Both the position numbers and the translations under genes were made by a program. Shown here piece by piece: positions 16,679 to 59,576 of a DNA stretch of 64,000 bases (position 1 is its first letter; each line of letters begins with the position of its first letter). The notes under the pieces are model-generated. The model ran no database searches. It was not told where the DNA came from and worked only from the letters and a program-made list of their open reading frames with translations. The DNA comes from a bacterium (GTDB taxonomy: Bacteria > Vulcanimicrobiota > Xenobia > Xenobiales > Xenobiaceae): the NCBI GenBank assembly GCA_017458675.1, contig JAFTAM010000176.1, positions 2,282 to 66,281 on the forward strand, read 5' to 3'.

Positions 16679-16698
16679 GAAACACTAAGCAATCGCAT

Positions 16699-27748: not shown

Positions 27749-27792
27749 TGAGCCTGATGTTTGTCAGCTCCTTCGCTGCGCTCATAAAGACA

Positions 27793-27855
27793 AAAAAAAG
27801 CGGCGCGCTGCTTTCCTCAAAAAAAACAGTACGCGCCGCCTCCCGTTTTCCCCGG
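27793..27855. terminator. Possible bidirectional terminator between convergent genes
   Basis: GCGGCGCGC (27800-27808) pairs perfectly with GCGCGCCGC (27832-27840), flanked by an A8 run and a T-rich stretch. The loop is long (23 nt), hence low confidence. Confidence 0.35.
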
Positions 27856-37344: not shown

Positions 37345-38994
37345 ATGCAGCCTTGCAGCCGCAATTATATAAACTGCCGTTTTTACGGCAATCAGGCTCC
37401 TTCAGCTCCTGAGCAGGCCCTGCGTCGGCTCAATAAGCCCGTATTCGCGGTCCTAAGCCGGGACGGAAGCTCCGCTGAGTTTTACAGCGGCGGCAGAATA
37501 GACTGCGAAGGCGCGGAAAGCGCTTCTGCGGAAGGACGCCCTCTTCTGGCGTTCGTTCCGCCTCTGAGAGCCGAGGATTGGGGAAACGCCGCTTTAAAAC
37601 GGGAATGCGGCATAAAATACGCCTGCCTGAGCGGTTCCATGGCCAACGGCATCGCCTCAGAGGCCTTAGTGGTCAATATGGCCAAAGCCGGCATGATGGG
37701 CTTTTTCGGCTCGGCCGGTTTAGGTCTCAGACAGGTGGAGGATCATATCGACTCCTTGAAAAAGCGTCTGCCCAGTCAGCCCTTCGGCTGCAATCTGATT
37801 TACAATCCCCACAATCAGCCGCTGGAGGCTCAGACCGCCGAACTTTTTATCAGAAAGGACGTCGCTTTTATCGAAGCCTCGGCTTATCTGACCCTCAATC
37901 CTTCGATTCTGCATTACCGCTACAGCGGCGTAAAGGAGCTGCCCGACGGCTCTCTGCATATTCCTCATAAAGTATTTGCAAAGGTTTCGCGCCCGGAAGT
38001 CGCCGCCAAGTTTCTGAGCCCGCCTCCTCCGGAAATGCTGCGCAAGCTGGTTGAGGAGGGAAAACTGACCTCTTCGGAAGCGGCTCTGGCTTCACGCATA
38101 CCTCCCGCCTATGCCTTGACCGCCGAGGCCGACTCGGGCGGCCATACCGACAACCGTCCGGCTCTGGCTCTGATCCCCGCGGTTATCAGTCTGCGCGACA
38201 GCCTGTGCCGAAAATACGGCTGGCATGTTTACGTTGGCGCCGCCGGAGGCGTATCTACTCCCGAATCGGCGGCGGCGATGTTCGCCATGGGCGCCGATTA
38301 CGTCATGACCGGCACGATAAACCAGGCCTGCCAGGAATCGGGCAGCAGCTCCGTAGTGCGGGAAATGCTCTCCAAGGCCACCGGCGCCGACGTCATGATG
38401 GCCCCGGCCGCCGATATGTTTGAAATGGGAGTAAACGTACAGGTGCTCAAATGGGGAACGATGTTCCCGATTCGGGCCCGCCGCCTCTATGAAATTTACC
38501 GCGCCTACGCCAGCTATGACGAGGTTCCCGACAGCATAAAGACCCAGATAGAGCGCGACATGCTGCGTCAGAGCTTCGATCGGGCCTGGGAAAGCACCAA
38601 GGCCTTCTTCCGGGAGCGCGATCCCCAGCAGATAGCCAAAGCCGACGGCAATCCAAAATATAAAATGGCCCTGGTCTTCCGTTCCTATCTCGGACAGGCC
38701 TCGCGCTGGGCCAACGCCGGAATACCCGACCGCAAGACCGACTATCAGATCTGGTGCGGCCCCTCCATCGGAAGTTTTAACCAATGGTGCAAAGGAACAT
38801 TCTTAGAAGACGTGAAGGAACGTCACGCCGATTTGGCCGCGCTCAATATTTTAGCCGGCGCCTGCGTAATTACCAGGGCCAATCTGCTGCGCAGCCAAGG
38901 CATAGAGCTTCCCGGCAGGCTCTGCAGCTTCAGTCCTCTGCCTTATAACGAGTTAGCGTCATTATTACAGGAGTCAGTCAGTGTCCGTCAATAA
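37345..38994 (+). CDS. pfaD: PfaD-family enoyl reductase (trans-acting ER of PUFA/secondary-lipid synthases)
   Basis: AAAGGAATAAAAT then ATG. Segment GSMANGIASEALVVNMAKAGMMGFFGSAGL is the nitronate-monooxygenase-like FMN TIM barrel characteristic of PfaD. 549 aa. Confidence 0.8.
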   Translation: MQPCSRNYINCRFYGNQAPSAPEQALRRLNKPVFAVLSRDGSSAEFYSGGRIDCEGAESASAEGRPLLAFVPPLRAEDWGNAALKRECGIKYACLSGSMANGIASEALVVNMAKAGMMGFFGSAGLGLRQVEDHIDSLKKRLPSQPFGCNLIYNPHNQPLEAQTAELFIRKDVAFIEASAYLTLNPSILHYRYSGVKELPDGSLHIPHKVFAKVSRPEVAAKFLSPPPPEMLRKLVEEGKLTSSEAALASRIPPAYALTAEADSGGHTDNRPALALIPAVISLRDSLCRKYGWHVYVGAAGGVSTPESAAAMFAMGADYVMTGTINQACQESGSSSVVREMLSKATGADVMMAPAADMFEMGVNVQVLKWGTMFPIRARRLYEIYRAYASYDEVPDSIKTQIERDMLRQSFDRAWESTKAFFRERDPQQIAKADGNPKYKMALVFRSYLGQASRWANAGIPDRKTDYQIWCGPSIGSFNQWCKGTFLEDVKERHADLAALNILAGACVITRANLLRSQGIELPGRLCSFSPLPYNELASLLQESVSVRQ

Positions 38995-46051: not shown

Positions 46052-49000
46052 ATGTCAGATAATCACTGCGATATAGCTATAGTCGGAATGGGACTGCACT
46101 TTCCCGGCGCGGACAGTCCCGAACAGTATTGGAAAGCTCTGCAGAGAGGCGAAGATCTCGCCCGCCCCATGGATGAAAAGAGACGCAAGGTTTCCCTAAA
46201 CGGCCTGATCAGTCCACAGACCAAAGCCGACGCTATGCGCTGCGACAGGGGATATTTTTTAAACGCTCTGCCCACGCCTCAGCAGCTTGATCTTCCCGAG
46301 GGAACAGACCCTCTTTTTGTTTTGGCATTAAGTACGGCGGAGCAGGCCTTAAAGGACGCCGGCAAGCTGCCGTCGGAACAGACCGGCGTCATTATGGCCT
46401 CCATCGCCCTGCCCACCGATACCACCTCGGCCCTGAGCGAAAGCACGCTGGGACGCAGCTTTGCCGAGAGCCTGCAGGCCAAGCTGCCGCCGGATAAAGC
46501 CTCGGCCGTCTCACCCGCCGAACTGCTGCCCTGCGAATATACTTTCCTCAGCAGCGTCTCCGACAGCAGCGAACAGGTTAAAGCTCTGAACAATTACCCG
46601 GTCGGACTTCCGGCTCAGCTGATCGCCTCCCGTTTCAGCCTGGGACTGGGAGCTTACACTTTAGACGCGGCCTGCGCCTCCTCGCTGGTAGCTATCGAGC
46701 TGGCCTGCCGGGAACTGCGCAGCGGGCGCGCCGAGGCCATGTTGGCCGGCGGCCTCTCCCGCCCCGACTGCCTCTACACTCAAATGGGCTTTTCCGCCCT
46801 CCACGCCCTCTCGCCCAGCGGCGCATGCTCTCCTTTTGACAAAAAAGCCGACGGACTTATGGTCGGCGAAGGCTGCGGTCTGGTCGTTCTGAAACGCCTG
46901 AAAGACGCCGAACGCAGCGGCGACAAAATTTACGGAGTCATTAAAGGAACAGGTCTTTCCAACGACATCGAAGGCAGTCTGGTGGCCCCGGCCAACGAGG
47001 GGCAGATCCGCTGCCTCCGGGACGCCTATCAAATCTGCGGCCTGAAGCCCTGGGATATAGACTTTATCGAATGCCACGGAACCGGCACACCGGTAGGCGA
47101 CAGCATTGAGTTCAAAAGCCTGCAGACTCTCTGGGAAGGAGCTCCCGAAAGCAGCCGCTGCCAGCTCCGCTCCGTCAAATCCATGCTGGGCCATTTATTG
47201 ACCGCCGCCGGTTCCGCCGGCTTAATCAGAGTGCTCTTAAACCTGCAGAAGGGGCAGATCACGCCGCAGGTCAACTTCAATGAAGCGGGCATACCTCTGA
47301 AAGAGAGCCATTTTGAAATATCCAATCAGTCCGTATCCTGGCCGAAAAAGGCCGAGGCTCCCCGCCGGGCCGCCGTCAGCGGCTTCGGCTTCGGCGGCAT
47401 CAACGCCCATTTAATTATCGAAGAATATCTGCCTCAGACAGCCTGCGAAGTCAACAGCGCGGCAGACGCACGGGCAACCGCTTCCTCCGCGCCCGCCTCT
47501 GCAGAAGAATCTGAAAACGGCGAAGAAGCGGCCGCCATTATCGGAATGGCCTGCCGCTTAGGCCAAATCGGCAGCATTCGCGAACTGGCCGGCGCTTTGT
47601 TGGACGGAAATTTTGAAAATGCAAAAATTTCGCCGGAGCCGTCCGCTCAGACATGCGAAAAATCCCGTCAGGGCGGCGCTTTCCTGAACAAGGTCGACAT
47701 ACCTATAGGGCGCTTCCGCATCCCTCCCGCCGATCTGCCCTCCATTCTGCCTCAGCAGTCCCTGCTTTTAAATACGGCCGCCGAGGCTATGCTCGACGCC
47801 GGTCAGCCCCTGCGCCTGCAGCGCGAGAGAGCCGCTGCGGTTATCGGCATAAATCTCGACTTAAATTCCACAAATTTCAATCTGCGCTGGCTGTTAAAAG
47901 ACAAAGCTGAAATCTGGGCGCAGAATTTAGGCTTAGACGAAAATGAAGCCAAGAGATGGCAGGAGGCCCTCAAGGATGAAATCTCCGAGCCCCTGGATGC
48001 GGTAAAAACTATCGGCGCTTTAGGCAGCATCGCAGCCAGCCGCGCCGCCCGCGAATTCCGTTTCGGCGGATGCTCTTTTACGGTGTCTTCCCAGGAGCTG
48101 TCCGGCTTTGACGCGCTGCAGATAGGCGCAGAGGCTCTGCTGAACCGCCGTCAGGATTTAATATTAGTCGGCTCAATAGACCTTCAGGGAGATCCGCGCC
48201 TGGCCTCCTGCCGCTTAAAAGACGAACCCATGCCCGAAAAATACGGAGAAGGGTCCTGCTGCCTGGTTTTAAAGAGGTACAGCGACGCCGTAAAGGACGG
48301 AGACCACATTTATGCGCTCATTAAAGGCTTGGCCAAAGCTGGCGCGGCCGCCCCGGAGAAAGACTCCTATACCGCTTTGGAAACGGCTTTGCGGCAGGCC
48401 TGTGAATACTCAGGAACACCGGCCGAAGACATTGCCTATCTGGAAACGGTCAACGGGCAATATCTCAGTCAGGGTCCCCAGAGCGCCTGTCAGACCCTGC
48501 GCCGCGTCTTGGACAGAGGGACCAAACCTCTGAGCGCGGGCAGCATTGAGGATTACGTCGGCCATAACGGCGCAAATTCCTTTACAGCCTCCCTGATCAA
48601 AACCGCCTTATGTCTCGACCAGGAGCTCTGGCCCGCCTCCAGACATTTTGACAGACTCTGCGGAGACGCAAACGATTGGCGCGGCAGTCGCTTTACCGTA
48701 CAGAAAACTTCATCTTTCTGGTTCAGAAACCGAGCTGAGGGGCCGCGGCGGGCCTTAGTCTGCGGGCGAGCCTACCCCGGTCAGTATGCCGCCGCCGTCT
48801 TAGAAGAACATTTTTCCGACGCTTACAGACCTCTGGCCGCTCCGCAGCTGCAGATCGGGATCTGGCCCTTCTTCGGCGAAAACGCCCAGGCGATAACCGC
48901 CAAACTGTCGGCGGTCCTGGAAAAAACTAAAGAGCTGCAGTCCCTGTCTGCGTCGGCTTCAGAGCAAAGCCGCCTGCTCCGGAACTTATGCCTGGATAAT

Positions 49001-52000
49001 TACCGCAGGGAAAAGGAAGAAGGAGCATCCCGCCTGTGTCTGGCCATAGCCAGCGACAGAAAAAACTCCGCTCCCCTCGCGGAATTCCAAAAACAGCTGG
49101 AAACAGCTCTGCAACATCTGCAGACCTCGCCCGAACAGGAACTGCGCCAGAATTCAATATTCTACAGCGCCGAGCCGCTGGCAAAATCCGGAAAAACAGC
49201 CTTTGTCTATCCCGGTTCAGGCGCAAATTTCTTAGGTTTGGGGCGCGAATTCGCTCTCAATTTCCTGCCTCTCATGCATCGCTTCGACCGCGAAAATCTG
49301 TATATGGCCGGCGAATTTGCCGCTAAATACAATCAGCCTCTGCGCCTGGACTGGTCTGAAGGCTGGCAGCAGAGAGCCGTACAGGAGCTGCAGGCCGACA
49401 CTCATCATATGATGTCCAGCCAGGTGAGCTTCGCCATGCTGACCACTGATATCGCGCGCTCTCTGGGTATAGAGCCGAACTGCGCCATAGGCTACAGCCT
49501 GGGCGAATCCTCGGCCCTCTTCTCTCTGCGGGCCTGGCCGGACCGCGATAAGATGTATCTGCGCATGGAGGGCTCCGATCTCTTCCGGGAGAAACTTTCC
49601 GGCAAATGCACGGCCGCCCGTCAGGCCTGGCACATTCCCGAAAACGCTCCCTTCAGTTGGAGCGCCGCCCTCTTGCCCGTACCGGCCGATAAGGTTAAAG
49701 AGGCGCTCAAGAATGTTAAAAACGCGCGTCTGCTGATTATCAATACCGACAAAGAGTGCGTAGTCGGCGGAACTCCCGAAGGCATTGACGAACTTTGCGC
49801 TCTGCTGCATACCAAAGCCATTAAAGTCAGCGGCGTAGATACCGTACACTGCGACTGTCTGGAGCCTGCGGCTGAAGAATATTGGCATATGCACCATCTG
49901 CCCTGCCAGCCTCTGCCCGGGGTTGAGTTCTACAGCGGCTGCAAAAACTGCGCATATCCTCTTACTTCAGAAAATATCGCCGACTCAATCGTCTCCCACG
50001 GACGGTACGGTTTTGATTATACAAAAACCATTCGCCGCGCCTGGGAGGACGGGGCCCGCATATTCCTTGAGATGGGACCGGGCTCTTCCTGCGCCCGCAT
50101 GATCCGCAGTATACTGCGCGGCAAACCACATTTTGCCATTAGCCTGAGCGGACGCGGCCAATCGGAGATGTTCTCCCTGGCCCAGTTCCTGGCAGGCGTT
50201 CTGAGCCAGGGGCTCCGTCCCGATCTCAGCCCGTTCTTCCCCTCGCTGCAGGCTGAAAAAGCAGAAAAGACGACGCCCACCCTGACCGTCCCGCTGAGCC
50301 GCCGTCCCTGCGATCCTCCGCTTCCCGCTTTTCCGAAAGCTTTATTCTCTGAAGGCACAAATACCGCTATGACCCAGAAAATTAAAACCGATTTGACGCT
50401 CGAATCCGAAACTGTCCCTGTCGAAACCGCAAAACCGGCCGAAGGCAGGACGCTCACAGAAATAACTGCGCTCAGCGCTGCCGAGGCAGCTTCAGTTCCG
50501 GACGCTCCGAAATGCGTCTGCGCCGATCCTCTGCAGAGTCTGCTTATGCAGCTGGCCCGAAATTCAAATTCAGCCCACCGGAAATGGCTTGAATTTGTCG
50601 GACAAAGCGCTAAAGTCTGGGAAAACCTTCTGGTCGGTCAAAGCAGCCTTATCTCCCAGGCCGCCGCCGGCAATCCGCAGCTGTTCAGGGAGCCGCTGAC
50701 AGTTGAAAAACCGTCGGAAGCCGCGCCTGTCTTATCCCCGGCGGCCCAATTTGCGCCTCATTCAGAAGATAAAGACCAAACTCACAAAGAGCACGGCTAC
50801 ACTCATAAGCTGCACGGCATCGAAACTACCGCCGACGGAGGCTATATCTGCGGCTTTAAGCCCAGCCTGGCCCCGCCCGATCAAAAGGTATTTTTAAACC
50901 GTCGGCAGTGTCTTGAATTTGCTACCGGCAAAATCGGCGACGTCTTGGGCGAACAGTTTGCTCCCATAGACAGCTATGCCGCCCGAGTGCGCCTTCCTGC
51001 CGAACCCTTGATGCTGGTAGACCGCATCGTTTCCATTGAAGGCGAACCTCTCAGCTTAGGCGCCGGACGCATAATTACCGAGCACGACGTCGTCCCCGAT
51101 ATGTGGTATCTCGACGGAAACCGCGCCCCGGTCTTTATTTCCGTGGAAGCCGGCCAGGCCGACCTGTTCCTGTGCAGCTGGCTGGGCATAGACTTCCAGG
51201 CCAAGGGCGACAGAGTATACCGGCTTTTGGACGCCAACGTCAAATTCCACCGCGGCCTGCCTCAGCCCAGCGAAACCGTACGCTACGATATCCGCATCAA
51301 GCGCTTTATCAACCAGGGAGAGACCTGGCTCTTCTTCTTTGAATACGAAGGAACTATCAACGGCGAGACCTTCCTGACCATGCGCGATGGCTGCGCCGGC
51401 TTCTTTACTCAGGAGGAGATCCGCAATAACGGCGGCCTGGTCATGACCGAAGCCAGCCTGCGCCCTCAAAAAGGCAAAAAAGGTCCGGAAGTCCAGGAAC
51501 TGACTCCTCTGAGCGCTTCCAGCTACACGCTGGAACAGGTCGAGGCTCTGCGCCGCGGCGATCTCGAGGGCTGCTTCGGCGCCGCCTTCGCCGGTCTGAA
51601 TCTGAAGAAGCCCGTAAGCCTGCCCGCCGGTCTGCTGCGCCTGATCCACCGCATCCCCGAATGCGACCCCTTCGGAGGACGCTGGGGCCTGGGCAAGGTG
51701 GTGGCCGAAGCCGACGTCCATCCCGAAGACTGGTATCTGACCTGCCACTTCATAGACGACATGGTCATGCCGGGAACCCTGATGTACGAATGCTGCGCTC
51801 ACGCTCTGCGCTTCCTATTAACCCGCTTTGGCTGGGTAGGCGAACAGGATAAAATTGCCTATGAACCGGTTCTGGGCGTCACCGCCGTACTCAAATGCCG
51901 CGGCCCGGTTCTGCAGACCACCAAGACCGTGCGCTACCAGGTTGAGATTAAGGAAATGGGCTACAACCCGGCGCCTTACGTCATTGCCGACGCTATCATG

Positions 52001-53380
52001 TACGCCGACAACAAGCGCATAGTGGGCTTTGAAAACGTTTCCATGCAGCTGACCGGCACAACCGGCGAAGAGCTGGAAAAGCTCTGGGCTGAGCGCAGCG
52101 CTTCTTCCCAAAACGCAGCTATTGAGCCGGGAAGCGCCTGCACTGACGACTGCGGCGACCCCAGAGCCGCCAATCCCGGCGATCTCAGCCATGCCGACGG
52201 CCGTTTAGGTCTGCTGCCCGCTTATAAAAATGTTACCATGAACGGCGATCCTCTCAAGGAAGCCATATTTACCGAGGAAAACTTCCGCCAATTTTCCGTA
52301 GGTCAGCCCAGTCTGGCCTTCGGCAAGGCTTTCAGGCCCTTCGACTCCCGATTTATAGCCCGCCTGCCGGGAGTGCCCTATCAGTTCGTAAACCGCATCG
52401 TGAGCGCCGATCATCCCTTCTTGGAGACCAAAGCCGGCGGCTGGGTAGAAGCGCAGTACGACGTACCGGCCAACGCCTGGTATTTTAAGGCCAACAAGAC
52501 CGGAGCCATGCCCTTCTGCGTAATAAATGAAATCGCGCTGCAGGTCTGCGGCTGGGTCTCCAGCTATGCCGGTTCTTCCCGCCACAGCTCGGATCCCTTA
52601 TATTACCGAAATTTGGGCGGAACCTCCGTGCTGCGCAGGGAAATTACTCCTCAAACCGGACGCATAACCATTAAGGTGCGCATGACTAAATCCTCGGAAG
52701 CAGGCGGACTGATCATTCAATCCTTTGATATGAAAATCGAGCAGAAGGGTGAAGTTATATATGAAGGCACGACCACCTTCGGCTTCTTCACTAAGCAGGC
52801 CCTTGCCGATCAGGTAGGCATCCGCGGCTGGAAGAGCAGAATTTGGCTGCCCGAGCAGGAAAATACGCCCGAAAGTCTGCCGATACAGCATCCCTTAAGC
52901 CCCTATGACGAAAATCTCGAGCAAAGCGGCAGCCTGGAACTTCCCGCCAAGGCTCTGCTGATGCTGGACAGCTTCGCCTGGTATCCTCAGGGCGGAAGCA
53001 AGGGACTGGGTGCGGCGGTAGGACGCAAAAAGATCGATCCCAAGGAATGGTTCTTCACCGCCCACTTCTTCCAGGATCCGGTCATGCCCGGCTCCTTAGG
53101 CTTAGAAGCCTTCCTGCAGGTACTTAAGGCAGCCGCCTTAAAACTGTGGCCCCACTTGCAGAAGACCCATCGCTTCAGCGCTATAACCGCCGGTTCTCCT
53201 CATACCTGGCTCTACCGGGGACAGGTTACCCGCGCCAATTCCTTTACAACCGCAAGAGCTGAGATAACCGAAATCCATGACGGTCCCGAGCCGTATCTGA
53301 AGGCCCGAGGCTTCCTGCAGGCCGATGATTTAACTATTTACGAGCTTCAGGATTTCGGCATAGCTCTGCTGAAAAGCTGA
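46052..53380 (+). CDS. pfaC: PfaC-like protein with integrated acyltransferase: KS-CLF-AT-DH(FabA-like)x2
   Basis: KS motifs LDAACASSLVAIEL, ECHGTGTPVGD, KSMLGHLLTA. A second KS-like domain lacks the active Cys (chain-length factor). AT motif AIGYSLGESSALFSL (~nt 49490). Two FabA-type hotdog pairs with CHFIDDMVMPG (~nt 51740) and AHFFQDPVMPG (~nt 53060). Ends ~110 aa after the last DH. Confidence 0.9.
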   Translation: MSDNHCDIAIVGMGLHFPGADSPEQYWKALQRGEDLARPMDEKRRKVSLNGLISPQTKADAMRCDRGYFLNALPTPQQLDLPEGTDPLFVLALSTAEQALKDAGKLPSEQTGVIMASIALPTDTTSALSESTLGRSFAESLQAKLPPDKASAVSPAELLPCEYTFLSSVSDSSEQVKALNNYPVGLPAQLIASRFSLGLGAYTLDAACASSLVAIELACRELRSGRAEAMLAGGLSRPDCLYTQMGFSALHALSPSGACSPFDKKADGLMVGEGCGLVVLKRLKDAERSGDKIYGVIKGTGLSNDIEGSLVAPANEGQIRCLRDAYQICGLKPWDIDFIECHGTGTPVGDSIEFKSLQTLWEGAPESSRCQLRSVKSMLGHLLTAAGSAGLIRVLLNLQKGQITPQVNFNEAGIPLKESHFEISNQSVSWPKKAEAPRRAAVSGFGFGGINAHLIIEEYLPQTACEVNSAADARATASSAPASAEESENGEEAAAIIGMACRLGQIGSIRELAGALLDGNFENAKISPEPSAQTCEKSRQGGAFLNKVDIPIGRFRIPPADLPSILPQQSLLLNTAAEAMLDAGQPLRLQRERAAAVIGINLDLNSTNFNLRWLLKDKAEIWAQNLGLDENEAKRWQEALKDEISEPLDAVKTIGALGSIAASRAAREFRFGGCSFTVSSQELSGFDALQIGAEALLNRRQDLILVGSIDLQGDPRLASCRLKDEPMPEKYGEGSCCLVLKRYSDAVKDGDHIYALIKGLAKAGAAAPEKDSYTALETALRQACEYSGTPAEDIAYLETVNGQYLSQGPQSACQTLRRVLDRGTKPLSAGSIEDYVGHNGANSFTASLIKTALCLDQELWPASRHFDRLCGDANDWRGSRFTVQKTSSFWFRNRAEGPRRALVCGRAYPGQYAAAVLEEHFSDAYRPLAAPQLQIGIWPFFGENAQAITAKLSAVLEKTKELQSLSASASEQSRLLRNLCLDNYRREKEEGASRLCLAIASDRKNSAPLAEFQKQLETALQHLQTSPEQELRQNSIFYSAEPLAKSGKTAFVYPGSGANFLGLGREFALNFLPLMHRFDRENLYMAGEFAAKYNQPLRLDWSEGWQQRAVQELQADTHHMMSSQVSFAMLTTDIARSLGIEPNCAIGYSLGESSALFSLRAWPDRDKMYLRMEGSDLFREKLSGKCTAARQAWHIPENAPFSWSAALLPVPADKVKEALKNVKNARLLIINTDKECVVGGTPEGIDELCALLHTKAIKVSGVDTVHCDCLEPAAEEYWHMHHLPCQPLPGVEFYSGCKNCAYPLTSENIADSIVSHGRYGFDYTKTIRRAWEDGARIFLEMGPGSSCARMIRSILRGKPHFAISLSGRGQSEMFSLAQFLAGVLSQGLRPDLSPFFPSLQAEKAEKTTPTLTVPLSRRPCDPPLPAFPKALFSEGTNTAMTQKIKTDLTLESETVPVETAKPAEGRTLTEITALSAAEAASVPDAPKCVCADPLQSLLMQLARNSNSAHRKWLEFVGQSAKVWENLLVGQSSLISQAAAGNPQLFREPLTVEKPSEAAPVLSPAAQFAPHSEDKDQTHKEHGYTHKLHGIETTADGGYICGFKPSLAPPDQKVFLNRRQCLEFATGKIGDVLGEQFAPIDSYAARVRLPAEPLMLVDRIVSIEGEPLSLGAGRIITEHDVVPDMWYLDGNRAPVFISVEAGQADLFLCSWLGIDFQAKGDRVYRLLDANVKFHRGLPQPSETVRYDIRIKRFINQGETWLFFFEYEGTINGETFLTMRDGCAGFFTQEEIRNNGGLVMTEASLRPQKGKKGPEVQELTPLSASSYTLEQVEALRRGDLEGCFGAAFAGLNLKKPVSLPAGLLRLIHRIPECDPFGGRWGLGKVVAEADVHPEDWYLTCHFIDDMVMPGTLMYECCAHALRFLLTRFGWVGEQDKIAYEPVLGVTAVLKCRGPVLQTTKTVRYQVEIKEMGYNPAPYVIADAIMYADNKRIVGFENVSMQLTGTTGEELEKLWAERSASSQNAAIEPGSACTDDCGDPRAANPGDLSHADGRLGLLPAYKNVTMNGDPLKEAIFTEENFRQFSVGQPSLAFGKAFRPFDSRFIARLPGVPYQFVNRIVSADHPFLETKAGGWVEAQYDVPANAWYFKANKTGAMPFCVINEIALQVCGWVSSYAGSSRHSSDPLYYRNLGGTSVLRREITPQTGRITIKVRMTKSSEAGGLIIQSFDMKIEQKGEVIYEGTTTFGFFTKQALADQVGIRGWKSRIWLPEQENTPESLPIQHPLSPYDENLEQSGSLELPAKALLMLDSFAWYPQGGSKGLGAAVGRKKIDPKEWFFTAHFFQDPVMPGSLGLEAFLQVLKAAALKLWPHLQKTHRFSAITAGSPHTWLYRGQVTRANSFTTARAEITEIHDGPEPYLKARGFLQADDLTIYELQDFGIALLKS

Positions 53381-53489
53381 ATTTGTTAAAATTTATTAAA
53401 TAATTGATTCAGAGTTTACATTTTTACAACACATAGACAGCGACATAATGCTATTATTAAAATGAAATATTTTATCGGAGGATAACAAG

Positions 53490-54374
53490 ATGTTTACTCC
53501 CGGTGTACCTTTCGGTCCCAACCCCTTCGGGGGTCCGTTAGGCATGGGCATGGGCGTAATAGGTCCTGCCGCTGTGCTGGCCCAGAGTTCGGCCATGACC
53601 GGAGCGGCAACCTTAGCCTATACCGTCGGCGCATTCAACACCGATATGCTGGGCGCCGCAATCTGCGCAGAAGCGCTGGGCGGTCCTCAGTTTGAATACG
53701 CCATGGGCGGTTATGCCGGCTCTATAGCCGGACAGGGAATCGGCGGTCTTTTAGGCATAGGCCTCGGTTCATATTTCGGCGGTCCGATGGGTATAATCGG
53801 CGGCGGAATGCTCGGCTCGATCTTAGGCGGAGGTATCGGCGGCGATTTGGCCAGAGATCTCTTTACTCCGGTTCCTTTCCCGCAGGACTCTTTCCCGCAG
53901 GACTCCTTCCCGCCCGGATCCTTCCCTCCGGGGTCTGTCCCGCCCGGGTCTTATCCGCATTACGGCAGCGGCCCGGTTTACACTCCAACTCCAACCCCTT
54001 CTCCCAGCACGGATACGGATAACACAAAAAAGGATAACGATTATCCTTATACTCCGCCCCCGCCGCCAGACTTTTACGGTCCCGGCCGCTTTGGCCACCA
54101 TCGCCGCCATCCCGGCGGTCCCTTCGGTCCGCGTCCGTTCCCCGGCGGTCCCTGGGGTCCCCGTCCCGGCGGACCTTACGGTCCCAGATATCCCGGCGGC
54201 TACGGCCCTCGTCCCTATCCGGGGACTAATCCCAGCACAAATCCGGGTTCTTATATTCCGCGTCCTCCTGTTCCTCCCGTGCCTCCGCGCCATAGCCGCG
54301 GTCCCGGCGGACCGGGCGGCCCCGACGGTCCTGACGGCCACGGTCCCAGACGCAGACGCGAGCTGCATTTCTAA
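53490..54374 (+). CDS. Glycine-zipper / Pro-Gly-rich small protein, paralog 1
   Basis: GGAGGATAACAAG RBS-leader. N-terminus MFTPGVPFGPNPFGGPLGMGMG. Gly-zipper hydrophobic segment GIGGLLGIGLGSYFGGPMGIIGGGMLGSILGGGIGG. C-terminal PGGPxGPRP repeats. Confidence 0.55.
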   Translation: MFTPGVPFGPNPFGGPLGMGMGVIGPAAVLAQSSAMTGAATLAYTVGAFNTDMLGAAICAEALGGPQFEYAMGGYAGSIAGQGIGGLLGIGLGSYFGGPMGIIGGGMLGSILGGGIGGDLARDLFTPVPFPQDSFPQDSFPPGSFPPGSVPPGSYPHYGSGPVYTPTPTPSPSTDTDNTKKDNDYPYTPPPPPDFYGPGRFGHHRRHPGGPFGPRPFPGGPWGPRPGGPYGPRYPGGYGPRPYPGTNPSTNPGSYIPRPPVPPVPPRHSRGPGGPGGPDGPDGHGPRRRRELHF

Positions 54375-54592
54375 GCCTTCTGATTTTAAACAAAGCAGGC
54401 TGAATTTCAGCCGCAAGTGTTTTTCTAAAAAAGCATCTTTATTCGCATAGGCAGAACGCCCTTAAAAAGCCGTATGCCCTGGATATGTGATAAATAGAAA
54501 GAATATTCAGTCCGACGCGCATATCTTTACGGCTGCTGCAGTAAGGAGCCTATCTGCCTCGGATAGAAAGATTATCTACGGAGGATAACAAA

Positions 54593-55372
54593 ATGTTTAT
54601 TCCCGGTGCACCTTTTGGTCCCAATCCGTTCGGCGGTCCGTTCGGCATGGGCATGGGTATGATGGGTCCTGGCCCGCTCATGGGCGCAGGAACCGCTTTA
54701 GCCGGAGCCGCTACCCTGGCTTACGGCGTAGGCGCTCTTAACACCGCTATGCTGGGCGCCACTCTCGGCGGCGGAATGATGGGCTGCCCCCAGATGTCCA
54801 ATGGCATGGGCGGCTTTGCAGGTTCTGTCGTCGGTCAGGGAATCGGCGGACTCTTAGGCATGGGCTTAGGCTCTTCTATCGGCGGCCCTATGGGAATGGT
54901 CGGCGGCGGAATGCTCGGCTCGATCTTAGGCGGAGGTATCGGCGCCAAGATCGGTAATGACATGCAGCAGGCCAGACAGGCTTATCAGCAGCCTCCACAG
55001 CCCGGCCCCGAACCCGGCCCGGTCAGAAGCGATGAAGCTTCCAGTACCGTAGGCGACGCTCTTAAAGGCGCGGCTATCGGAGGCGCAATCGGTTTAGGCG
55101 CCGCTGCCATAGCCAACTCAGCCAGCGCCAGCTTCTTCCCGCCTCCTCCTCCGCCTCCCGGCGGTCCCTTCGGCGGTCCTTTCGGTCCCGGTCCCCGACC
55201 CGGCGGCCCCTTCGGCGGTCCCTTCGGTCCCGGTCCCCGACCCGGCGGCCCCTTCGGCGGTCCCGGTCCCCGTCCCGGCGGTCCCTTCGGCGGTCCCCAT
55301 CCTCACCACGGTCCTCATCCCGGCGGTCCCTTCGGCCCCGGTCCTCACCGCGGTCCCGGTTTTCCATTTTAA
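54593..55372 (+). CDS. Glycine-zipper / Pro-Gly-rich small protein, paralog 2
   Basis: Identical GGAGGATAACAAA leader. N-terminus MFIPGAPFGPNPFGGPFGMGMG. Same Gly-zipper block. C-terminal (GGPFGGPFGPGPRP)n. Terminator follows. Confidence 0.55.
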   Translation: MFIPGAPFGPNPFGGPFGMGMGMMGPGPLMGAGTALAGAATLAYGVGALNTAMLGATLGGGMMGCPQMSNGMGGFAGSVVGQGIGGLLGMGLGSSIGGPMGMVGGGMLGSILGGGIGAKIGNDMQQARQAYQQPPQPGPEPGPVRSDEASSTVGDALKGAAIGGAIGLGAAAIANSASASFFPPPPPPPGGPFGGPFGPGPRPGGPFGGPFGPGPRPGGPFGGPGPRPGGPFGGPHPHHGPHPGGPFGPGPHRGPGFPF

Positions 55373-55394
55373 TAAATAGCTTTTGAACGTACAA

Positions 55395-55430
55395 GCGGCT
55401 TCTGCAGATTCGCAGAAAGCCGTTTTTTTA
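55395..55430 (+). terminator. Rho-independent terminator
   Basis: CGGCTTCTGC-loop-GCAGAAAGCCG followed by TTTTTTTATT, 20 nt after the 55372 stop. Confidence 0.65.
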
Positions 55431-55545
55431 TTGTTATTTGGCTAAACGCAGCGCCTCTCGGAGCCGGCCGGCTTACTGGCCTTAAACTTTATTTAATGAA
55501 GCTCGGGGGCGCGCCGAAGCAAAGAAGCAACGCCTATCGTCAATG

Positions 55546-55770
55546 TCGGTAAGCTAAACAAAAACTAGCTTTAAGCAGGCATGCTTAACAGAGGATTTGC
55601 CCTGCACAAAAGCGAGCGTCCGAGCCGAAGGCGCCGCGAAGCGAAATACAAATCAAAGCCGGCTCAGCGAAAACATACAGAACATGTTTGAAAGATTCTT
55701 CGCAGCGCTCTCAATGACAGAGTAAACGATTAAGAGTATAATTGTTCGCCTTATAAATACCGACCTGAGT
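55546..55770 (+). repeat. Dispersed intergenic repeat, copy B (more diverged)
   Basis: TCGGTAAGCTAAACAAAAACTAGCTTTAAGCAGG...GAAAGATTCTTCGCAGCGCTCTCAATGACAG...TTCGCCTTATAAATAC. Forms the left flank of the AT-rich island. Confidence 0.75.
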
Positions 55771-56926
55771 ACTTATACATGTCAGTTGAGGACAATAATT
55801 CTGTTCTATAATACAATAAATACAGAAATACTGTACAATAATTCAGCCGGTTTGCATTGCTGTAAGTATTATTGCACACAAAAAAATGAGGCTGGCAGCA
55901 ATCGGCACAGCCTCATATTACTCAAAATACATATTCAAATGCCGAAAATATTCAGAGTCCCTCCCGCTGCAGCATTTTGAATACATATTCTTAAAATTCC
56001 GTCAGATATCGCAGTCAACAAAATGAAGCTTATTATACTGCAATTCCAAGGTAAGGTCGTCATCTCTGATAATGCATAAGCTCTGTTTTCCCCGTATTAT
56101 GAGCTATGCACAGCAGAGACTACAAAAACGGTATTTCTGAAATATCTTCAGCATAATAACATACTCTTCCCCTAAGAGAGACAATAAAAGTATTATTGCC
56201 ATTATTTGCTGAAGAATTAGAAAAGAAACTCAGCCCGCCGCCATTATTGTTCTGCAATAATGCCCAGAAATAACTGATTGGAACAGATAATGACATAAAA
56301 GATACAGCATTTATTGCTAAACTGACAATAAAAACGGTTAAGGTATGACCTTCTTTTCAACACTAATTGATATCATCTCCATTTCGGATATGACTCATTG
56401 TTTGTTTTCATTCCTTTTCACTAAACTGACCTGTGAAATACTGTCAGCAATATTTCACCTATGACAGCTGCGTTTAATTATCCCCCACGACAGCTGGTCA
56501 CGTTGTCACAAAATCGGCCTTAAGAATGAAAACCCGTCTCAGAATTCGATAAAGCATCCCTATAGACAATCACAAATGATACTGATAATACAATAAAGAT
56601 AAACTCGTCAGGTAAAACTAATCTGTCGCGAACAATAATACACTCAGAACATCAAATAAGCCTTGCAATAACCTGTCAATACGCCTGATAACGACATTAT
56701 GACAATATAATGCTTCCATCTTCCCCACCCTCTTACTGGTCTGGACATCAATTAATTGCTGTCCTTTTGTAGTATTATAATACCACAGCAGACAATAATA
56801 ATCAACACCTATTTATATTATTGTATAACATTTTTGGTACTTTCTTCAGACCATGATCGAAGCGTGATAACATAATACTGACGCAGCTCCGCTATTTTAA
56901 ACCTGCCAGATAAAAGATACTCACTG
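55771..56926. other. AT-rich (about one-third GC) gene-less island flanked by direct copies of the dispersed repeat
   Basis: Sampled lines give ~30-35 percent GC against a ~58 percent background. No ORF of 60 aa or more except the weak 55786-55980. Contains hairpins and dyads (55886-55916; GTGAAATA-n9-TATTTCAC at 56436-56460; duplicated GACAGCTG at 56464-56498). Confidence 0.6.
55879..55916 (-). terminator. Orphan rho-independent terminator (minus strand) inside the AT-rich island
   Basis: Minus-strand reading shows ATGAGGCTG-loop13-CAGCCTCAT followed by TTTTTTT. No ORF of 60 aa or more on the minus strand upstream of it (55920-56900). Confidence 0.5.
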
Positions 56927-57179
56927 CCGGTAAGTTAAGAAAAACAGGCTTTAAGCATACACGCTTAATAAAGGTTTTCTTTGACGCGTACGCGGAGATT
57001 CGAGCACAGCTTCGCGCGGAGCGGCAGCGACAAAGAAAACCGGCATAACGAAAACATGCAGAACATGATTGAAAGATTCTTCGCTGCGCTCTCAATGATA
57101 AGGGAAACACTCTTAAGCATATACAGACAAGCTTTTATGCCATTTTCGGCAAAATCTTGCCTTAACTATATAACATTGG
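56927..57179 (+). repeat. Dispersed intergenic repeat, copy C
   Basis: CCGGTAAGTTAAGAAAAACAGGCTTTAAGCATAC...GAAAGATTCTTCGCTGCGCTCTCAATGATAAG...CTTGCCTTAACTATATAACATTGG. Forms the right flank of the island, ~115 nt upstream of the HAD gene start. Confidence 0.85.
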
Positions 57180-57292
57180 TCTTATGCGGCAAGTTATTTT
57201 TAGCCAAGCTAACATTTTCATCAGTTAAGTTTTCCATAAATACCGGATATGTAGTAAAATACATATCCATTTAAACGGAGCGGAAAAAAACA

Positions 57293-57955
57293 ATGAAGTC
57301 TTTTACAACCTGCATATTTGATATGGACGGAGTTCTGTTAGATTCAGAGCCCTTCTGGCGTCAGGCCCAGATGCGGATTTTCGCTGAAGTCGGTCTGAAT
57401 TTAAACGAAGAAGACTGCCGGCAGACAACTGGGATCCGCATTGACGAACTGGTAAGATTCAGATACGGCCAACAGCCTTGGACCGGCCCTTCCTGCGCTG
57501 AGGTTTCGGCACAAATCCAAAATACGGTAGGCCTGCTAATTTCACAGCACGGAAGAACCCTGCCGGGCGTCAGAGAAGCTGTTAATTTTATGCGATCCCA
57601 AGGGCTGAGACTGGCGCTGGCCTCTTCTTCCTCGCTGCAGCTCATTGACATCACCCTTAAGACCTTAGGACTTCAAAATTGCTTTGAGCTCATCCATTCA
57701 GCCGAAAACGAACCCTTAGGCAAGCCGCATCCGGCCGTCTTTCTGCATACGGCTGAAAAGCTGGGCGAAAAGCCGGTAAGCTGTCTGGTAATCGAAGATT
57801 CCTTAAATGGAGTAATAGCCGCCAAAGCTGCTCAAATGACCTGCGTTGTCGTTCCCGACCGTGCCGATAACGATAACCCTAAATTCATAATCGCCGATCT
57901 GACTCTGAAGAATCTGACGGAGCTGCCAGCGCGCTGGCCCGACATAGTAAAGTAA
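57293..57955 (+). CDS. HAD-superfamily sugar-phosphate phosphatase (beta-PGM/YniC-like subfamily)
   Basis: Motif I FDMDGVLLDSEP. Motif III GKPHPAVF. Motif IV EDSLNGVIAAKAA. Confidence 0.8.
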   Translation: MKSFTTCIFDMDGVLLDSEPFWRQAQMRIFAEVGLNLNEEDCRQTTGIRIDELVRFRYGQQPWTGPSCAEVSAQIQNTVGLLISQHGRTLPGVREAVNFMRSQGLRLALASSSSLQLIDITLKTLGLQNCFELIHSAENEPLGKPHPAVFLHTAEKLGEKPVSCLVIEDSLNGVIAAKAAQMTCVVVPDRADNDNPKFIIADLTLKNLTELPARWPDIVK

Positions 57956-57957
57956 GA

Positions 57958-58167
57958 TTATGCTTAGCAAATAATTGGGCTTTGCCTCATCATCCTGAGC
58001 GCAGCGAAGAATCTTTCAGCATGTTTTACATGTTTTCGCTGTGTCGGTTTTCTTTTGCACTTCGCTCCGCGCTCGCCGTAACCGGAGCTCGGACGCTCGC
58101 TTCAGAGCAAAACAAAACCTGTGTATAACATGTCTGCTTAAAGCCTGCTTTTGCTTAACTTACCGAC
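57958..58167 (-). repeat. Dispersed intergenic repeat, copy D (inverted orientation, between convergent genes)
   Basis: Reverse complement of GGTACTGTCGGTAAGTTAAGCAAAAGCAGGCTTTAAGCAGACATG...GAAAGATTCTTCGCTGCGCTCAGGATGATGAGG. Confidence 0.8.
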
Positions 58168-58190
58168 AGTACCGCGCCCGCCGTCCGTAT

Positions 58191-59576
58191 TTACTCCCTC
58201 TCTGAAATACAGAAGGGCGCCCAGGAGCTAAGAATCAAAATACAGGCCGTCGGGATTATTCCCCAATAGAAACTGGAACTTTTGCCGCCCAGAAAGGCAA
58301 AGACCGCAAAGCCCAACAGGAAGCCGCCTAAAACCAAGCTCAAACCTTTGGGCAGATATTTTAAGGAAAGCAGAGACAGAACAAATAAAACCGGTCCCAC
58401 AATCGCCCAGCAGGCATAGAAGGGCTCGGCGTACTGCAGCATAGTCAGCAGAAACTGCCAGCCGCCGCTGCCGGAATCGGGATCGAACAAACCGCATGGC
58501 AGGAGCTCCGGCAGGCAGCTGAATACGGTGAAAAGGTGAACTGCCAGGAAAGTCAGGCCTATAGCCAAGGGCAAACACGTCCAGCCTTTTTTCTCCCATT
58601 TTTCCGCATAAGCCGCTGCAGGCAGCAGCAGAGCCGGCAAAAGCATGAATTCTCTGGTTATCGCAGCCATTATAAGGCAAAGAGAAGCTCCCAGGCTATG
58701 TCGGCGCACAATAAAGGGCAGGCTGAAGATCACGAAAAACATAGCCCAGTATTCGGTCATAAGCATCAGCCAGGAGGAAACCCCATAAAAGAAAAGCGGG
58801 CCTATAGCCGCGGCGGCCGCATAGGCCGGCAGAGAGCCGATAATGGCTTCTCCGGCCCGCCAGACGCTGTACATAGCCAGAGCTGAAAAGATCAGAAATA
58901 AGTAGGTAACTCCCATTCCCCAGCCCCAGGTGCAGTACTTCCAAAGCATAAAACAGGAGGGCAGACGGTAACCGAAAGCAAAGGGCGGCGCTATTCCGAC
59001 ATTGCCGCTCAGCAGACAGTTCTCAGCTATTGCCGAATAGACAGACTGCCCTTCGCAGACCCTGTAATACATCTGTCTGTATAAAGAGCCGTCATTGCCG
59101 ACCGGCCGCCTGCCTGAATCGATCTGCATAGCCGCGGAAAAACCGGGATTCAGGCAGAGGCTCTGCAGAGCCAGCAAAAGGGCCGTCGCTCCCAAAACTC
59201 CCAGCGCAAAGCGGCGCTCTTTAAACAGCGGTTTTTCTCCCCATAGGCTCCATAAAAGACCGGCCGCCAATGCAGCCAAAGTGAGGCTGAGCGTATGAGC
59301 ATCCAAAAAACCGTTTGTCAAACCGGCGGTAACCGCATCCCGGCCCAGCAGCAGAGAAGTAAAATCGCTCCTGACCAGCAGAAAGGCGCACAGAGCATTG
59401 ATCAGAGCGGCTTTCAAAGGTTTATGCCGGGTTTCAGGCATCAAGGAGTACAAAAACCAAGCGCATATGAAAGGTACCAGCCACACCGCAGGCTGCCACA
59501 CCGAAGCGCTCAAGGCGCACCAAAGCAGCAGCGTCCCTAGTGTTGAACCTAAAAATTTTAGACTTTCCGAGCTCAT
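58191..59576 (-). CDS. Polytopic integral membrane protein (possible GT-C-type glycosyltransferase)
   Basis: 461 aa with more than 10 hydrophobic helices. The family call is tentative. Confidence 0.4.
   Translation of the reverse strand: MSSESLKFLGSTLGTLLLWCALSASVWQPAVWLVPFICAWFLYSLMPETRHKPLKAALINALCAFLLVRSDFTSLLLGRDAVTAGLTNGFLDAHTLSLTLAALAAGLLWSLWGEKPLFKERRFALGVLGATALLLALQSLCLNPGFSAAMQIDSGRRPVGNDGSLYRQMYYRVCEGQSVYSAIAENCLLSGNVGIAPPFAFGYRLPSCFMLWKYCTWGWGMGVTYLFLIFSALAMYSVWRAGEAIIGSLPAYAAAAAIGPLFFYGVSSWLMLMTEYWAMFFVIFSLPFIVRRHSLGASLCLIMAAITREFMLLPALLLPAAAYAEKWEKKGWTCLPLAIGLTFLAVHLFTVFSCLPELLPCGLFDPDSGSGGWQFLLTMLQYAEPFYACWAIVGPVLFVLSLLSLKYLPKGLSLVLGGFLLGFAVFAFLGGKSSSFYWGIIPTACILILSSWAPFCISERE

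Follow-up and report, generated by a model that had tools for sequence, protein, structure and literature searches.

Large non-coding RNAs (ncRNAs) are rare in bacteria, and RNase P, OLE, GOLLD and ROOL have proved elaborate in both structure and function. It was mostly as GC-rich islands of AT-rich genomes that the OLE, GOLLD, ROOL and raiA-motif classes came to light. The search for GC-rich islands has been described as an approach to large ncRNA classes (PMC6429828, PMC8632094). The locus examined here lies in a 64-kb stretch of DNA (64,000 nucleotides; the window) and is probably a stand-alone gene whose product, predicted to be expressed, is a large structured ncRNA, AU-rich and of an undescribed orphan family. 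Like OLE, GOLLD, ROOL and raiA-motif RNA, the island is a long, stand-alone, intergenic unit without ORFs that has conserved sequence blocks, a predicted multi-helix fold built around a junction core, and its own (here predicted) promoter and intrinsic terminator. It differs from them in matching no Rfam model up to E 10, in the window or in relatives, in being AU-rich within a moderately GC-rich genome, in its occurrence in three related lineages only, and in having no adjacent tRNA or prophage genes.

The island (55775-56921, 1147 nt) is the longest low-GC stretch of the window, at 35.8% GC with every 200-nt window at 0.34-0.38; the whole window has 53.8% GC and the 10 kb of coding DNA upstream 55-59%. 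The preliminary description of this DNA was thus right to place the AT-rich gap at roughly one-third GC, whereas its figure of about 58% for the window falls in the range of the upstream coding DNA. Its repeat coordinates agree with nhmmer boundaries to ~5 nt, and only one frame does reach 60 aa, as it had said: the longest ORFs within the island are 64 aa (55786-55980, plus strand, TTG start) and 58 aa (56120-56296, minus strand). The minus strand is rich in T and G, and no paralogue of the island occurs within the window. The region 52503-58107 was recovered at 99.98% identity in two further metagenome assemblies and diverged homologues are present in other samples, so the low-GC stretch is not the assembly chimera that had been raised as a possibility. 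Features of the locus are collected in Table 1.

Table 1. Coordinates of the island's features and of the dispersed repeat (window positions; L005, L033 and L035 are loci of related lineages)
Feature	Positions	Strand	Evidence and remarks
MITE copy D	16487-16747	-	nhmmer; full copy
MITE copy A	26773-27034	+	nhmmer; full copy
MITE copy B	55541-55774	+	nhmmer E=1e-61; 3' end degenerate; absent from orthologous L005 spacer
Small hairpin TACAG-N5-CTGTA and TGTACAAT motif	55815-55842	-	conserved block just beyond terminator
Intrinsic terminator (predicted)	55880-55914	-	stem GAGGCUG/CAGCCUC (55914-55888), U7 (55886-55880)
3' part of putative RNA	55915-56230	-	weakly constrained; ~45-70% window vs L005; 85.8% L005 vs L035
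5' core of putative RNA, ~540 nt	56231-56770	-	strongly constrained; 80-97% blocks window vs L005; 90.4% L005 vs L033
Empty MITE target site	56231-56240		CAGCCCGCCG; junctions of L033, L035 vs L005, window
Invariant 22-mer	56273-56294	-	ACTGATTGGAACAGATAATGAC on plus strand; identical in three lineages
Multi-helix core domain, 160 nt (predicted)	56385-56545	-	11-bp closing helix (56537-56524 with 56414-56404)
SD-like segment	56717-56732	-	GAGGGUGGGGAAG then AUG; G-rich, conserved in three lineages
5' hairpin/near-palindrome	56743-56764	-	GGACAGCAAUUAAUUGAUGUCC; ~6-27 nt past predicted start; invariant window vs L005
Sigma-70-type promoter (predicted)	56777-56805	-	consensus scan; -35 TTGATT (56805-56800), 17-nt spacer, extended -10 TGgTATTAT
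A/T-rich, UP-element-like tract	56806-56850	-	upstream of -35; conserved in three lineages; holds 56817-56836
MITE copy C	56922-57183	+	nhmmer E=6e-78; full length; spacer island-hxpB; absent from L005, L033
MITE copy E	57954-58171	-	nhmmer; 3'-truncated; between hxpB and 461-aa membrane-protein gene

Our comparison covers three related uncultured lineages (that of the window, L005 and L033/L035), two of them mutually close, with synteny around the island conserved among related lineages; the third was reached via neighbour-protein searches, through a cluster member only. Examining orthologous loci, as the preliminary description had proposed, revealed the island in both L005 and L033/L035. 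Between the window and L005 it is 74.8% identical over 769 nt, against 52% at 4-fold sites of the adjacent hxpB, with 80-90% in the core, 97% in the promoter block, and interspersed variable blocks at 40-50%; conservation of 80-90% is continuous over >300 nt. In the closer pair, L005 and L033/L035, identity is 90.4% in the 5' part and 85.8% in the 3' part; 4-fold sites there are at 81% and the island-hxpB spacer at 70%. Conservation drops past ~56850 in both comparisons. Both independent comparisons thus show slower evolution in the island than at synonymous sites, and this gene-less stretch of ~1 kb is, judging from these identities, kept under selection in three related uncultured lineages rather than decaying.

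Promoter and terminator motifs on one strand, the minus strand, delimit the conserved stretch. The extended -10 element ends at 56777, predicting a start near 56770, and the promoter, identical in the three lineages except for two spacer bases in L033, sits in the island's most conserved block (97%, window versus L005). The minus-strand terminator that had been reported earlier was located at 55888-55914 and is followed by U7; its fold scores -16.8 kcal/mol (z -2.7), and conservation across the three lineages (window, L005 and L035) covers the stem and U-run, with a variable loop. The sole plus-strand terminator candidate scores -4.9 kcal/mol (z -0.7), and inspection by eye of the consensus scan and alignments found no conserved plus-strand promoter. 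We also considered a plus-strand, RNAIII-like RNA with C-rich seed motifs, which is disfavoured by the lack of a conserved promoter, the weak terminator, and lower SCI and energies.

The island also has a conserved folding potential. Its consensus fold energy lies well below that of column shuffles (z -7.9 on the minus strand and -6.4 on the plus strand). In the 5' core, the three-sequence consensus fold comprises 143 pairs, with 96.7% of cells paired; two-sided changes affect 14 of these pairs, where shuffles give 5.4±1.8 and slid controls 0-5. On a fold made without L033, 16 of the 51 L033-specific substitutions fall in paired columns (47% of columns are paired), and the substitutions leave 6 pairs broken where 14.8 would be expected (P ~0.001). 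Both signals could in part reflect local rate heterogeneity or the derivation of the fold from the same sequences, and compensatory pairs compared with refolded, shuffled two-sequence alignments are not above chance (z 0.5). A single-sequence test gave a weak signal. In the predicted 160-nt core domain, the closing helix and a 4-bp helix enclose two hairpins. The first has as its arms the two GACAGCTG boxes (56463-56470 and 56489-56496), already recognized as a duplication in the preliminary description, and a conserved GGGGGA loop; the second, of 11 bp, includes the 8-bp stem GTGAAATA/TATTTCAC, which had been correctly identified at coordinates ~3 nt away from its position at 56433-56458. This domain has SCI 0.99 and z -5.8 on the minus strand, against 0.81 and -4.2 on the plus strand. 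Among its 39 pairs, two show compensatory changes, four show one-sided changes that, on the minus strand alone, remain G-U compatible, and one terminal pair is broken in three sequences; its single-sequence MFE is -42.4 kcal/mol (z -3.5). The invariant 22-mer at 56273-56294 is predicted to pair over a long range with 56717-56732 in helix 2, whose 11 pairs are all invariant and so show no covariation, and in L033 a G-C pair of the 5' hairpin has become A-U by changes on both sides. Many of the predicted stems are AU-only and weak.

Palindromes and folds of this kind could instead belong to DNA. The island might be a conserved DNA element with palindromes that proteins bind, such as an extended region for regulation or for binding of nucleoid proteins, or a non-autonomous cassette, now a relic, bounded by short terminal inverted repeats. 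The most conserved block does hold the perfect or near-perfect palindromes GGACAtCAATTAATTGcTGTCC and GTATTATAATAC, single-sequence fold z-scores are alike on the two strands (-3.5 and -3.6), as expected for DNA palindromes, and ACAATAA occurs 7 times against 0.4 expected. A 20-nt imperfect inverted repeat, moreover, bounds the conserved stretch at both ends, outside the promoter-terminator unit; its left arm at 55815-55842 and its partner at 56817-56836 are 80% complementary. However, the length of the well-conserved sequence far exceeds that of operator sites, one-sided changes preserve G-U pairing on the minus strand only, consensus energy and SCI likewise favour that strand, and the canonical promoter and terminator lie on one strand. 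Neither the window nor the fetched loci gave evidence of mobility. An origin of replication was rejected: no TTATCCACA-like DnaA box (<=1 mismatch) occurs in 55775-56921, and GC skew is negative across the window without a switch, which also speaks against a DNA element more broadly. We regard a DNA-level explanation as unlikely.

A structured transcript might also be an mRNA that encodes at least one very small protein and whose long untranslated tail is structured. The main candidate is an ORF of 18-33 codons behind the strong Shine-Dalgarno-like GGGUGGGGAAG-AUG at 56732-56717; the motif and the AUG are kept in 3/3 lineages, L005 and L033 share the same UAA end, and a C-terminal RIDRLL is conserved. 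Yet the length of the ORF behind GAGGGUGGGGAAG differs, at 33 aa in the window against 18 aa in both L005 and L033, its middle third is unconserved, and substitutions counted by hand on the alignments are spread evenly over codon positions (6/5/5), a pattern that shows no sign of protein-level constraint. The consensus fold engages the G-rich segment in pairing with the invariant distal 22-mer, and the ORF would account for <10% of the conserved sequence. Elsewhere in the island no coding signal appears. Mismatches lack 3-nt periodicity in every ungapped block (all p>0.3), whereas hxpB is 85/85/52% identical across codon positions (window versus L005); 1-2-nt indels interrupt the conserved blocks, and a conserved-sORF scan of the same pair found no other ORF of >=10 aa intact in both lineages. 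Pfam searches with the island's ORFs returned nothing credible. A small-protein mRNA is thus quite improbable.

In more distant, Ca. Bruticola-like relatives, an eamA transporter gene of similar length and the same orientation occupies exactly the island's position, which raises the question of whether the island is a decaying remnant, be it a pseudogene derived from eamA or from some AT-rich foreign gene, or inert DNA gained by horizontal transfer. Foreign or decaying DNA is typically low in GC, and the T- and G-rich minus strand resembles the sense strand of membrane-protein genes. We nonetheless consider this reading highly improbable, because both comparisons show the island changing more slowly than synonymous sites, with the neutral-looking blocks inside it as an internal control. 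The Bruticola EamA protein found no island match in the window by tblastn (E up to 10), nor did relatives' eamA by blastn, there is no Pfam signal, and plasmid and phage collections hold nothing that matches. An eamA gene, any other protein-coding gene and a recent pseudogene were accordingly rejected for want of an ORF, codon periodicity or protein-family similarity; close relatives likewise have no ORF here and the distant eamA is dissimilar, unlike the frameshifted conserved gene that the preliminary description had envisaged. Its suggestion of a decayed foreign insert survives in part: foreign origin is plausible given the AT-richness and the occupied eamA slot, but the sequence is not decaying.

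Database searches placed the island in no known family. Rfam 15 at gathering thresholds gave no hits in the whole window, and permissive searches returned chance-level matches only, both in 55300-58300 (E 0.7-5; 20-25 bits against thresholds of 47-100) and in L005 and L034, so the covariance-model scan proposed earlier matched no family. No tRNA or tmRNA genes were found. A covariance model of the core matched only the window and L005 among the fetched loci, a set that did not include L033-L036, and scanning genome contigs for HxpB recovered only unrelated, distant HADs. Viral scans yielded none, or 8 chance matches in NTTADNN tail-fibre-type coding repeats; two metagenome scans yielded none and then 8 chance matches in AT-rich contigs with no similarity beyond; and distant blastn against plasmid and phage collections returned nothing. 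Across these viral, metagenome, plasmid and phage searches, no island homologue was found outside the three-lineage clade, and neither this locus nor any ncRNA of Xenobia turned up in our literature search.

The ncRNA reading, which the preliminary description had listed among its options, draws support from the signs of selection, the lack of coding signal, the promoter and terminator motifs and the conserved predicted folds. We infer minus-strand transcription, the RNA ends and the function of the island as follows. The locus would have been acquired, or would have arisen, in the common ancestor of the three lineages, which are Xenobia-like with Ca. Bruticola as the nearest named relative, and would have taken the slot and orientation of the eamA gene of more distant relatives. 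The A/T-rich tract and the sigma-70-type promoter (56805-56777) would drive transcription of the minus strand from a start near 56770; the transcript, ending at the canonical intrinsic terminator (55914-55880), would form a hairpin at its 5' end, a domain closed by long-range pairing and the 160-nt multi-helix core (56545-56385). Promoter and terminator would delimit an RNA of ~0.9 kb, of which the 5' core, ~0.55 kb, is constrained.

Six conserved GGGGA-like G-runs are spread along this AU-rich RNA. At least one of these G-rich motifs, which are set in an AU-rich scaffold, lies in a hairpin loop. The most likely mode of action would be that of a trans-acting scaffold or sequestering RNA for protein or C/U-rich RNA partners. 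Repeated short motifs are also a feature of CsrB and RsmZ (GGA loops) and of S. aureus RNAIII and RsaE (C-rich loops), but the island has only ~6 motifs in ~900 nt, with loop placement for one, and the likeness is a resemblance from general knowledge that assigns no partner protein to the RNA. Whether the island represents a new class of large (0.55-0.9 kb) structured ncRNA, AU-rich in a GC-richer genome, so far restricted to gut-associated Xenobia-like bacteria (Vulcanimicrobiota), having displaced a transporter gene, held under purifying selection and equipped with G-rich motifs suggestive of partner sequestering or scaffolding, is in our judgement an evenly balanced proposition.

Several observations weigh against an ncRNA. 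First, a MITE of 260 nt interrupts the unit midway in one lineage: the RNA may tolerate the insert, function may depend on the 5' 540 nt alone, or the gene may have died in that lineage. Second, three lineages, two of them close, are too few for statistical covariation. Third, in a genome of 54% GC one would not usually expect a structured RNA to be AT-rich. Finally, there is no Rfam match and no homologue outside the clade. To our knowledge, the phylum has a single cultured representative. If the reading is correct, a new large ncRNA from so sparsely cultured a phylum would be a useful entry point, and AT-rich, ORF-less islands in GC-richer genomes may, instead of being junk or silenced foreign DNA, include RNA genes under selection, which screens of the usual kind for GC-rich intergenic regions would overlook.

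The repeats that bracket the island belong to a family of ~260 nt that is plentiful in this genome, with five copies per 64 kb, each intergenic, so that finding two of them in the longest intergenic region is unremarkable. The family has 18-nt terminal inverted repeats (TIRs; CAnTGTCnGTAAGTTAAG and CTTAACTTTATGACATTG). The island of L033/L035 contains a copy flanked on both sides by the 10-bp target-site duplication (TSD) CAGCCTGCCG, at a site that is empty in L005 and the window; a repeat with its own TIRs and TSD within the island is an independently inserting MITE, identified by TIRs together with a TSD read from filled and empty sites. Copy A has a TSD matching at 8/10 positions. In length, non-coding nature, ~18-nt TIRs, 10-bp TSD, many dispersed intergenic copies and polymorphic occupancy across lineages, the repeat resembles described MITEs; it differs in that no parent IS was found and in a core motif that is also free-standing. 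No repeat separates hxpB from the 461-aa membrane-protein gene in L005 and L033, where the two genes adjoin or overlap. Judged from such site comparisons, the flanking repeats are independent, later MITE insertions and not part of the island. The proposal that a same-orientation pair of repeats captured the AT-rich segment and moved it as cargo, put forward in the preliminary description as a composite insertion, repeat-mediated capture or MITE-flanked cargo, is barely credible: B and C do border low-GC DNA directly in the same orientation, as in a composite transposon, and the repeat is truly mobile, having TIRs and a TSD, but L005 and L033/L035 hold the supposed cargo at orthologous sites without B, C or E, the copy in L033/L035 sits within the island with its own TSD, B and C are neither autonomous nor sister copies (62% identical, against 82% for C and A, 30 kb apart), the B-island-C unit has no outer target duplication (its flanks CGCCTATCGT and GTCTTATGCG mismatch), and no second copy of the island was found in the window or by the covariance-model search of fetched loci. 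The locus is thus a worked example of how bracketing repeats alone do not define a composite element, and its filled and empty sites give clear evidence of a MITE family active in these uncultured bacteria. The free-standing motif of the MITE core, TGTCATTCTGAGCGnAGCGAAGAATCT, is ~30 nt long and stands alone many times in the window.

The AT-rich tract at 55775-56921, here called the island, is probably, though far from certainly, a stand-alone gene encoding a large structured non-coding RNA, AU-rich and of an undescribed family, with expression predicted from sequence. A non-coding RNA was one of the options offered in the preliminary description, and it is now the best-supported one. The island has a GC content of 35.8%, with each 200-nt window within it at 0.34-0.38, and is the longest low-GC tract across the 64 kb; coding DNA upstream has 55-59%, and the window averages 53.8% rather than the roughly 58% first estimated. 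The reported scarcity of reading frames was confirmed (longest ORF, 64 aa), and the terminator, hairpin and duplicated boxes were all found within about 3 nt of the positions first described. Because two other metagenome assemblies hold 52503-58107 at 99.98% identity, the island is not an assembly chimera.

A full set of minus-strand transcription signals, forming a predicted unit, is found in the conserved stretch (about 55808-56850). The promoter lies within the island's most conserved block and is identical in three lineages (the window's; L005, a relative; and a third, represented by L033/L034 and L035/L036, two contig ends from the same samples), except for two spacer bases in L033. Across these lineages the terminator keeps its stem and varies in its loop. 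The sole plus-strand terminator candidate has an AU-only stem (-4.9 kcal/mol) and is no better than shuffles, and no conserved plus-strand promoter was seen at the island. The predicted RNA, ~890 nt long, would contain 28.5% A, 34.6% U, 22.3% G and 14.6% C. Six GGGGA-like G-runs on the RNA strand are conserved within this AU-rich scaffold; by prediction, one occupies a hairpin loop and another pairs with a distal 22-mer that is invariant. This arrangement hints that the RNA acts as a scaffold or by sequestration. Beyond the promoter-terminator unit, at both ends of the conserved island, lie the 20-nt arms of an imperfect inverted repeat (core TGTACAAT, 80% complementary); they may match by chance or be what remains of the ends of an ancient cassette.

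Features of the island, its surroundings and the repeats of the window
Feature	Position	Strand	Remarks
A/T-rich tract	56850-56806	-	upstream of predicted promoter
Predicted promoter	56805-56777	-	-35 TTGATT, 17-nt spacer, extended -10 TGgTATTAT
Conserved G-runs	56732-56721, 56488-56481, 56242-56231, 56176-56166, 56094-56086, 55967-55957	-	
Best-defined domain	56545-56385	-	160 nt; 11-bp closing helix and 4-bp helix around two hairpins
GACAGCTG boxes	56463-56470, 56489-56496		together form one domain hairpin, conserved GGGGGA loop
Hairpin first described	56433-56458		second domain hairpin; 11 bp on minus strand via U-G pair
Terminator	55914-55880	-	canonical; GC-rich 7-10-bp stem, -16.8 kcal/mol, then U7
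Inverted-repeat arms	55823-55842, 56817-56836		
Repeat copy A	26773-27034	+	
Repeat copy B	55541-55774	+	left flank of island
Repeat copy C	56922-57183	+	right flank of island
Repeat copy D	16487-16747	-	
Repeat copy E	57954-58171	-	
Repeat ends at third-lineage contig breaks	L033 1-29; L035 11113-11141		
~30-nt motif sites	3376-3409, 5031-5062, 5155-5186, 5290-5319, 8412-8451, 15588-15619, 24087-24164, 27757-27799		
Pfa-type synthase genes	38981-45946, 46052-53380	+	giant, multidomain; 2321 and 2442 aa
Gly/Pro-rich orphan genes	53490-54374, 54593-55372	+	paralogous
hxpB (HxpB-type HAD phosphatase)	57293-57955		right neighbour of island
Polytopic membrane-protein gene	58191-59576	-	461 aa
Tandem repeats	8940-9526		period 9/18 nt; in ORF 8614-10248 (-)
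Tandem repeats	3643-3966		period 12 nt; in ORF 3562-4950 (+)
Direct duplication	28137-28217, 28373-28453		81 nt; 85% identity, 236 nt apart

The folding potential of the island is conserved. Folded singly, both strands beat shuffles with z about -3.5, as expected because the stems are DNA palindromes, and this symmetry would also fit an element conserved as DNA instead of RNA. We consider that alternative unlikely, since the comparative measures favour the minus strand: the consensus fold of the window and L005 reaches z -7.9 against column shuffles (-145 kcal/mol) on the minus strand versus -6.4 (-98 kcal/mol) on the plus, and in sliding windows through the core the structure-conservation index is higher on the minus strand (0.99 versus 0.81 at 56391-56538; 0.69 versus 0.37 at 56194-56340). 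The single-sequence minimum-free-energy test was weakly positive. Among the 39 pairs of the 160-nt domain of the proposed RNA, compared across three sequences, two show two-sided changes (U-A to C-G), four change on one side, each still pairing only as a minus-strand G-U, and one, a terminal pair, is broken. In an independent test, the fold from the window and L005 alone was scored with L033-specific substitutions: 16 of 51 fall in paired columns, though 47% of columns are paired, and 6 pairs are broken versus 14.8 expected (P about 0.001); a G-C pair of the 5' hairpin becomes A-U in L033, both sides having changed. In the 5' 540 nt of the three-sequence fold, 96.7% of cells are paired, with 14 two-sided changes versus 5.4±1.8 in shuffles and 0-5 in slid controls, figures to be read, like those of the other structure tests, in the light of just three sequences, folds derived from the same data and local differences in substitution rate. 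Against refolded shuffled two-sequence alignments, compensatory pairs are no more numerous than expected by chance (z 0.5), and we regard the covariation as suggestive.

Between the window and L005, identity is 74.8% over 56087-56835, a level that the flanking coding genes also show in their nucleotide sequences, and the terminator region aligns too. It reaches 80-90% over 56220-56530 and 70-97% over 56640-56835, and is 40-50% in the variable blocks 56532-56640 and 55960-56160, which provide an internal neutral control; in hxpB, codon positions 1, 2 and 3 are 85, 85 and 52% identical, and 4-fold sites 52%. Between L005 and L033/L035, the island is 90.4% identical in its 5' part and 85.8% in its 3' part, 4-fold sites 81% and the island-hxpB spacer 70%. 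All 13 ungapped island blocks lack a 3-nt periodicity of mismatches, conserved blocks contain 1-2-nt indels, no island ORF of at least 10 aa is intact in both the window and L005, and none has a credible Pfam match. Judged by these comparisons, the island is under purifying selection yet not coding, and the possibility of a conserved gene merely frameshifted here finds no support in this pattern. A strong SD-like GGGUGGGGAAG-AUG does open a short ORF, as an mRNA for a tiny protein would require, but this frame runs for 33 codons in the window and for 18 in L005 and the third lineage, and shows no protein-level constraint, leaving that reading improbable. A decaying remnant is more doubtful still, given how far the conserved blocks exceed the 52% of 4-fold sites.

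The flanking repeat, ~260 nt long, has five full copies in 64 kb, every one intergenic, and its occupancy of sites varies among related lineages. Both third-lineage contigs end within a copy that interrupts the island at the site corresponding to window 56231-56240. Set against L005 and the window, where the site is empty, the filled site of L033/L035 reveals terminal inverted repeats of ~18 nt (CAnTGTCnGTAAGTTAAG and CTTAACTTTATGACATTG) and a 10-bp target-site duplication (CAGCCTGCCG); the repeat is thus a MITE that inserts independently of the island. Copy A retains 8/10 of its duplication, C and A are 82% identical, and no parent transposase was seen. Copies B and C do bracket the island in the same orientation, as first described, but a composite mobile insertion is very improbable, because L005 carries the island with no trace of B, C or E, and B and C are only 62% identical with no duplication flanking the B-island-C unit. 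Copies C and E are missing from the third lineage as well, and with five copies per 64 kb the composite geometry is coincidental. Both the weaker conservation of 55915-56230 and the MITE found in one lineage point to the 5' ~540 nt as the functional part of the proposed RNA. Every MITE copy has at its core a ~30-nt motif, TGTCATTCTGAGCG(A/C)AGCGAAGAATCT, that is also found by itself; its occurrences, at least 12 over the two strands, are in intergenic DNA or close to it. It resembles a REP-like or mini-MITE element, and motifs of this kind are widespread among other phyla.

Among named bacteria, Ca. Bruticola spp. (Vulcanimicrobiota, class Xenobia; 58-60% amino-acid identity) are the closest relatives, and synteny with them extends >15 kb around the site: a Pfa-like PKS, a Gly/Pro-rich orphan protein, a variable slot, hxpB, then ferredoxin-type genes, ATP-grasp and peptidase M3. 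Two Bruticola-like lineages have a minus-strand eamA transporter gene (309 aa) in the slot, of which tblastn and blastn found no trace in the island, and two closer lineages have the island in its place. The HxpB of L005 is 74% identical to the window's at the amino-acid level and 93% to that of the third lineage. The non-coding RNA locus would have been inherited vertically at one site within a small clade made up of uncultured Xenobia-like bacteria, the island having replaced eamA there. Its known distribution is narrow (three lineages), and it is a candidate addition to the few orphan large non-coding RNAs of bacteria. Selection and gene-like signals are decently supported, structure thinly. 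Rfam, searched permissively as well, gave no match in the window or relatives, and plasmid and phage collections none to the island; viral and JGI metagenome scans gave chance hits at most. Neither the window nor the loci searched with a core covariance model yielded a paralogue or second copy of the island. A replication origin was rejected, as the island has neither DnaA boxes nor a skew switch.

Several neighbouring genes merit mention. The Pfa-type genes, whose products are polyketide or polyunsaturated fatty-acid synthases, are conserved in Ca. Bruticola-like relatives. The orphan genes directly after them encode proteins without a Pfam domain that have GGPFGP-type repeats and a hydrophobic, Gly-rich N-terminal half; there is one copy per locus in Ca. 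Bruticola-like lineages and two in island-bearing ones. The 461-aa membrane protein, also without a Pfam domain, has just 5 relatives among 5.8 billion proteins. In the three island-bearing lineages, and only there, its gene separates hxpB from the ferredoxin genes; homologues at 44% identity occur elsewhere with no island adjoining; that it might be functionally tied to the island RNA, in the manner of OLE and OapA, is pure speculation. Elsewhere in the window, two ORFs with long in-frame tandem repeats probably encode repetitive low-complexity proteins, and the reverse strand of the 81-nt duplication contains, by eye, Cys-rich zinc-ribbon-like peptide starts, possibly of tandem small paralogues.
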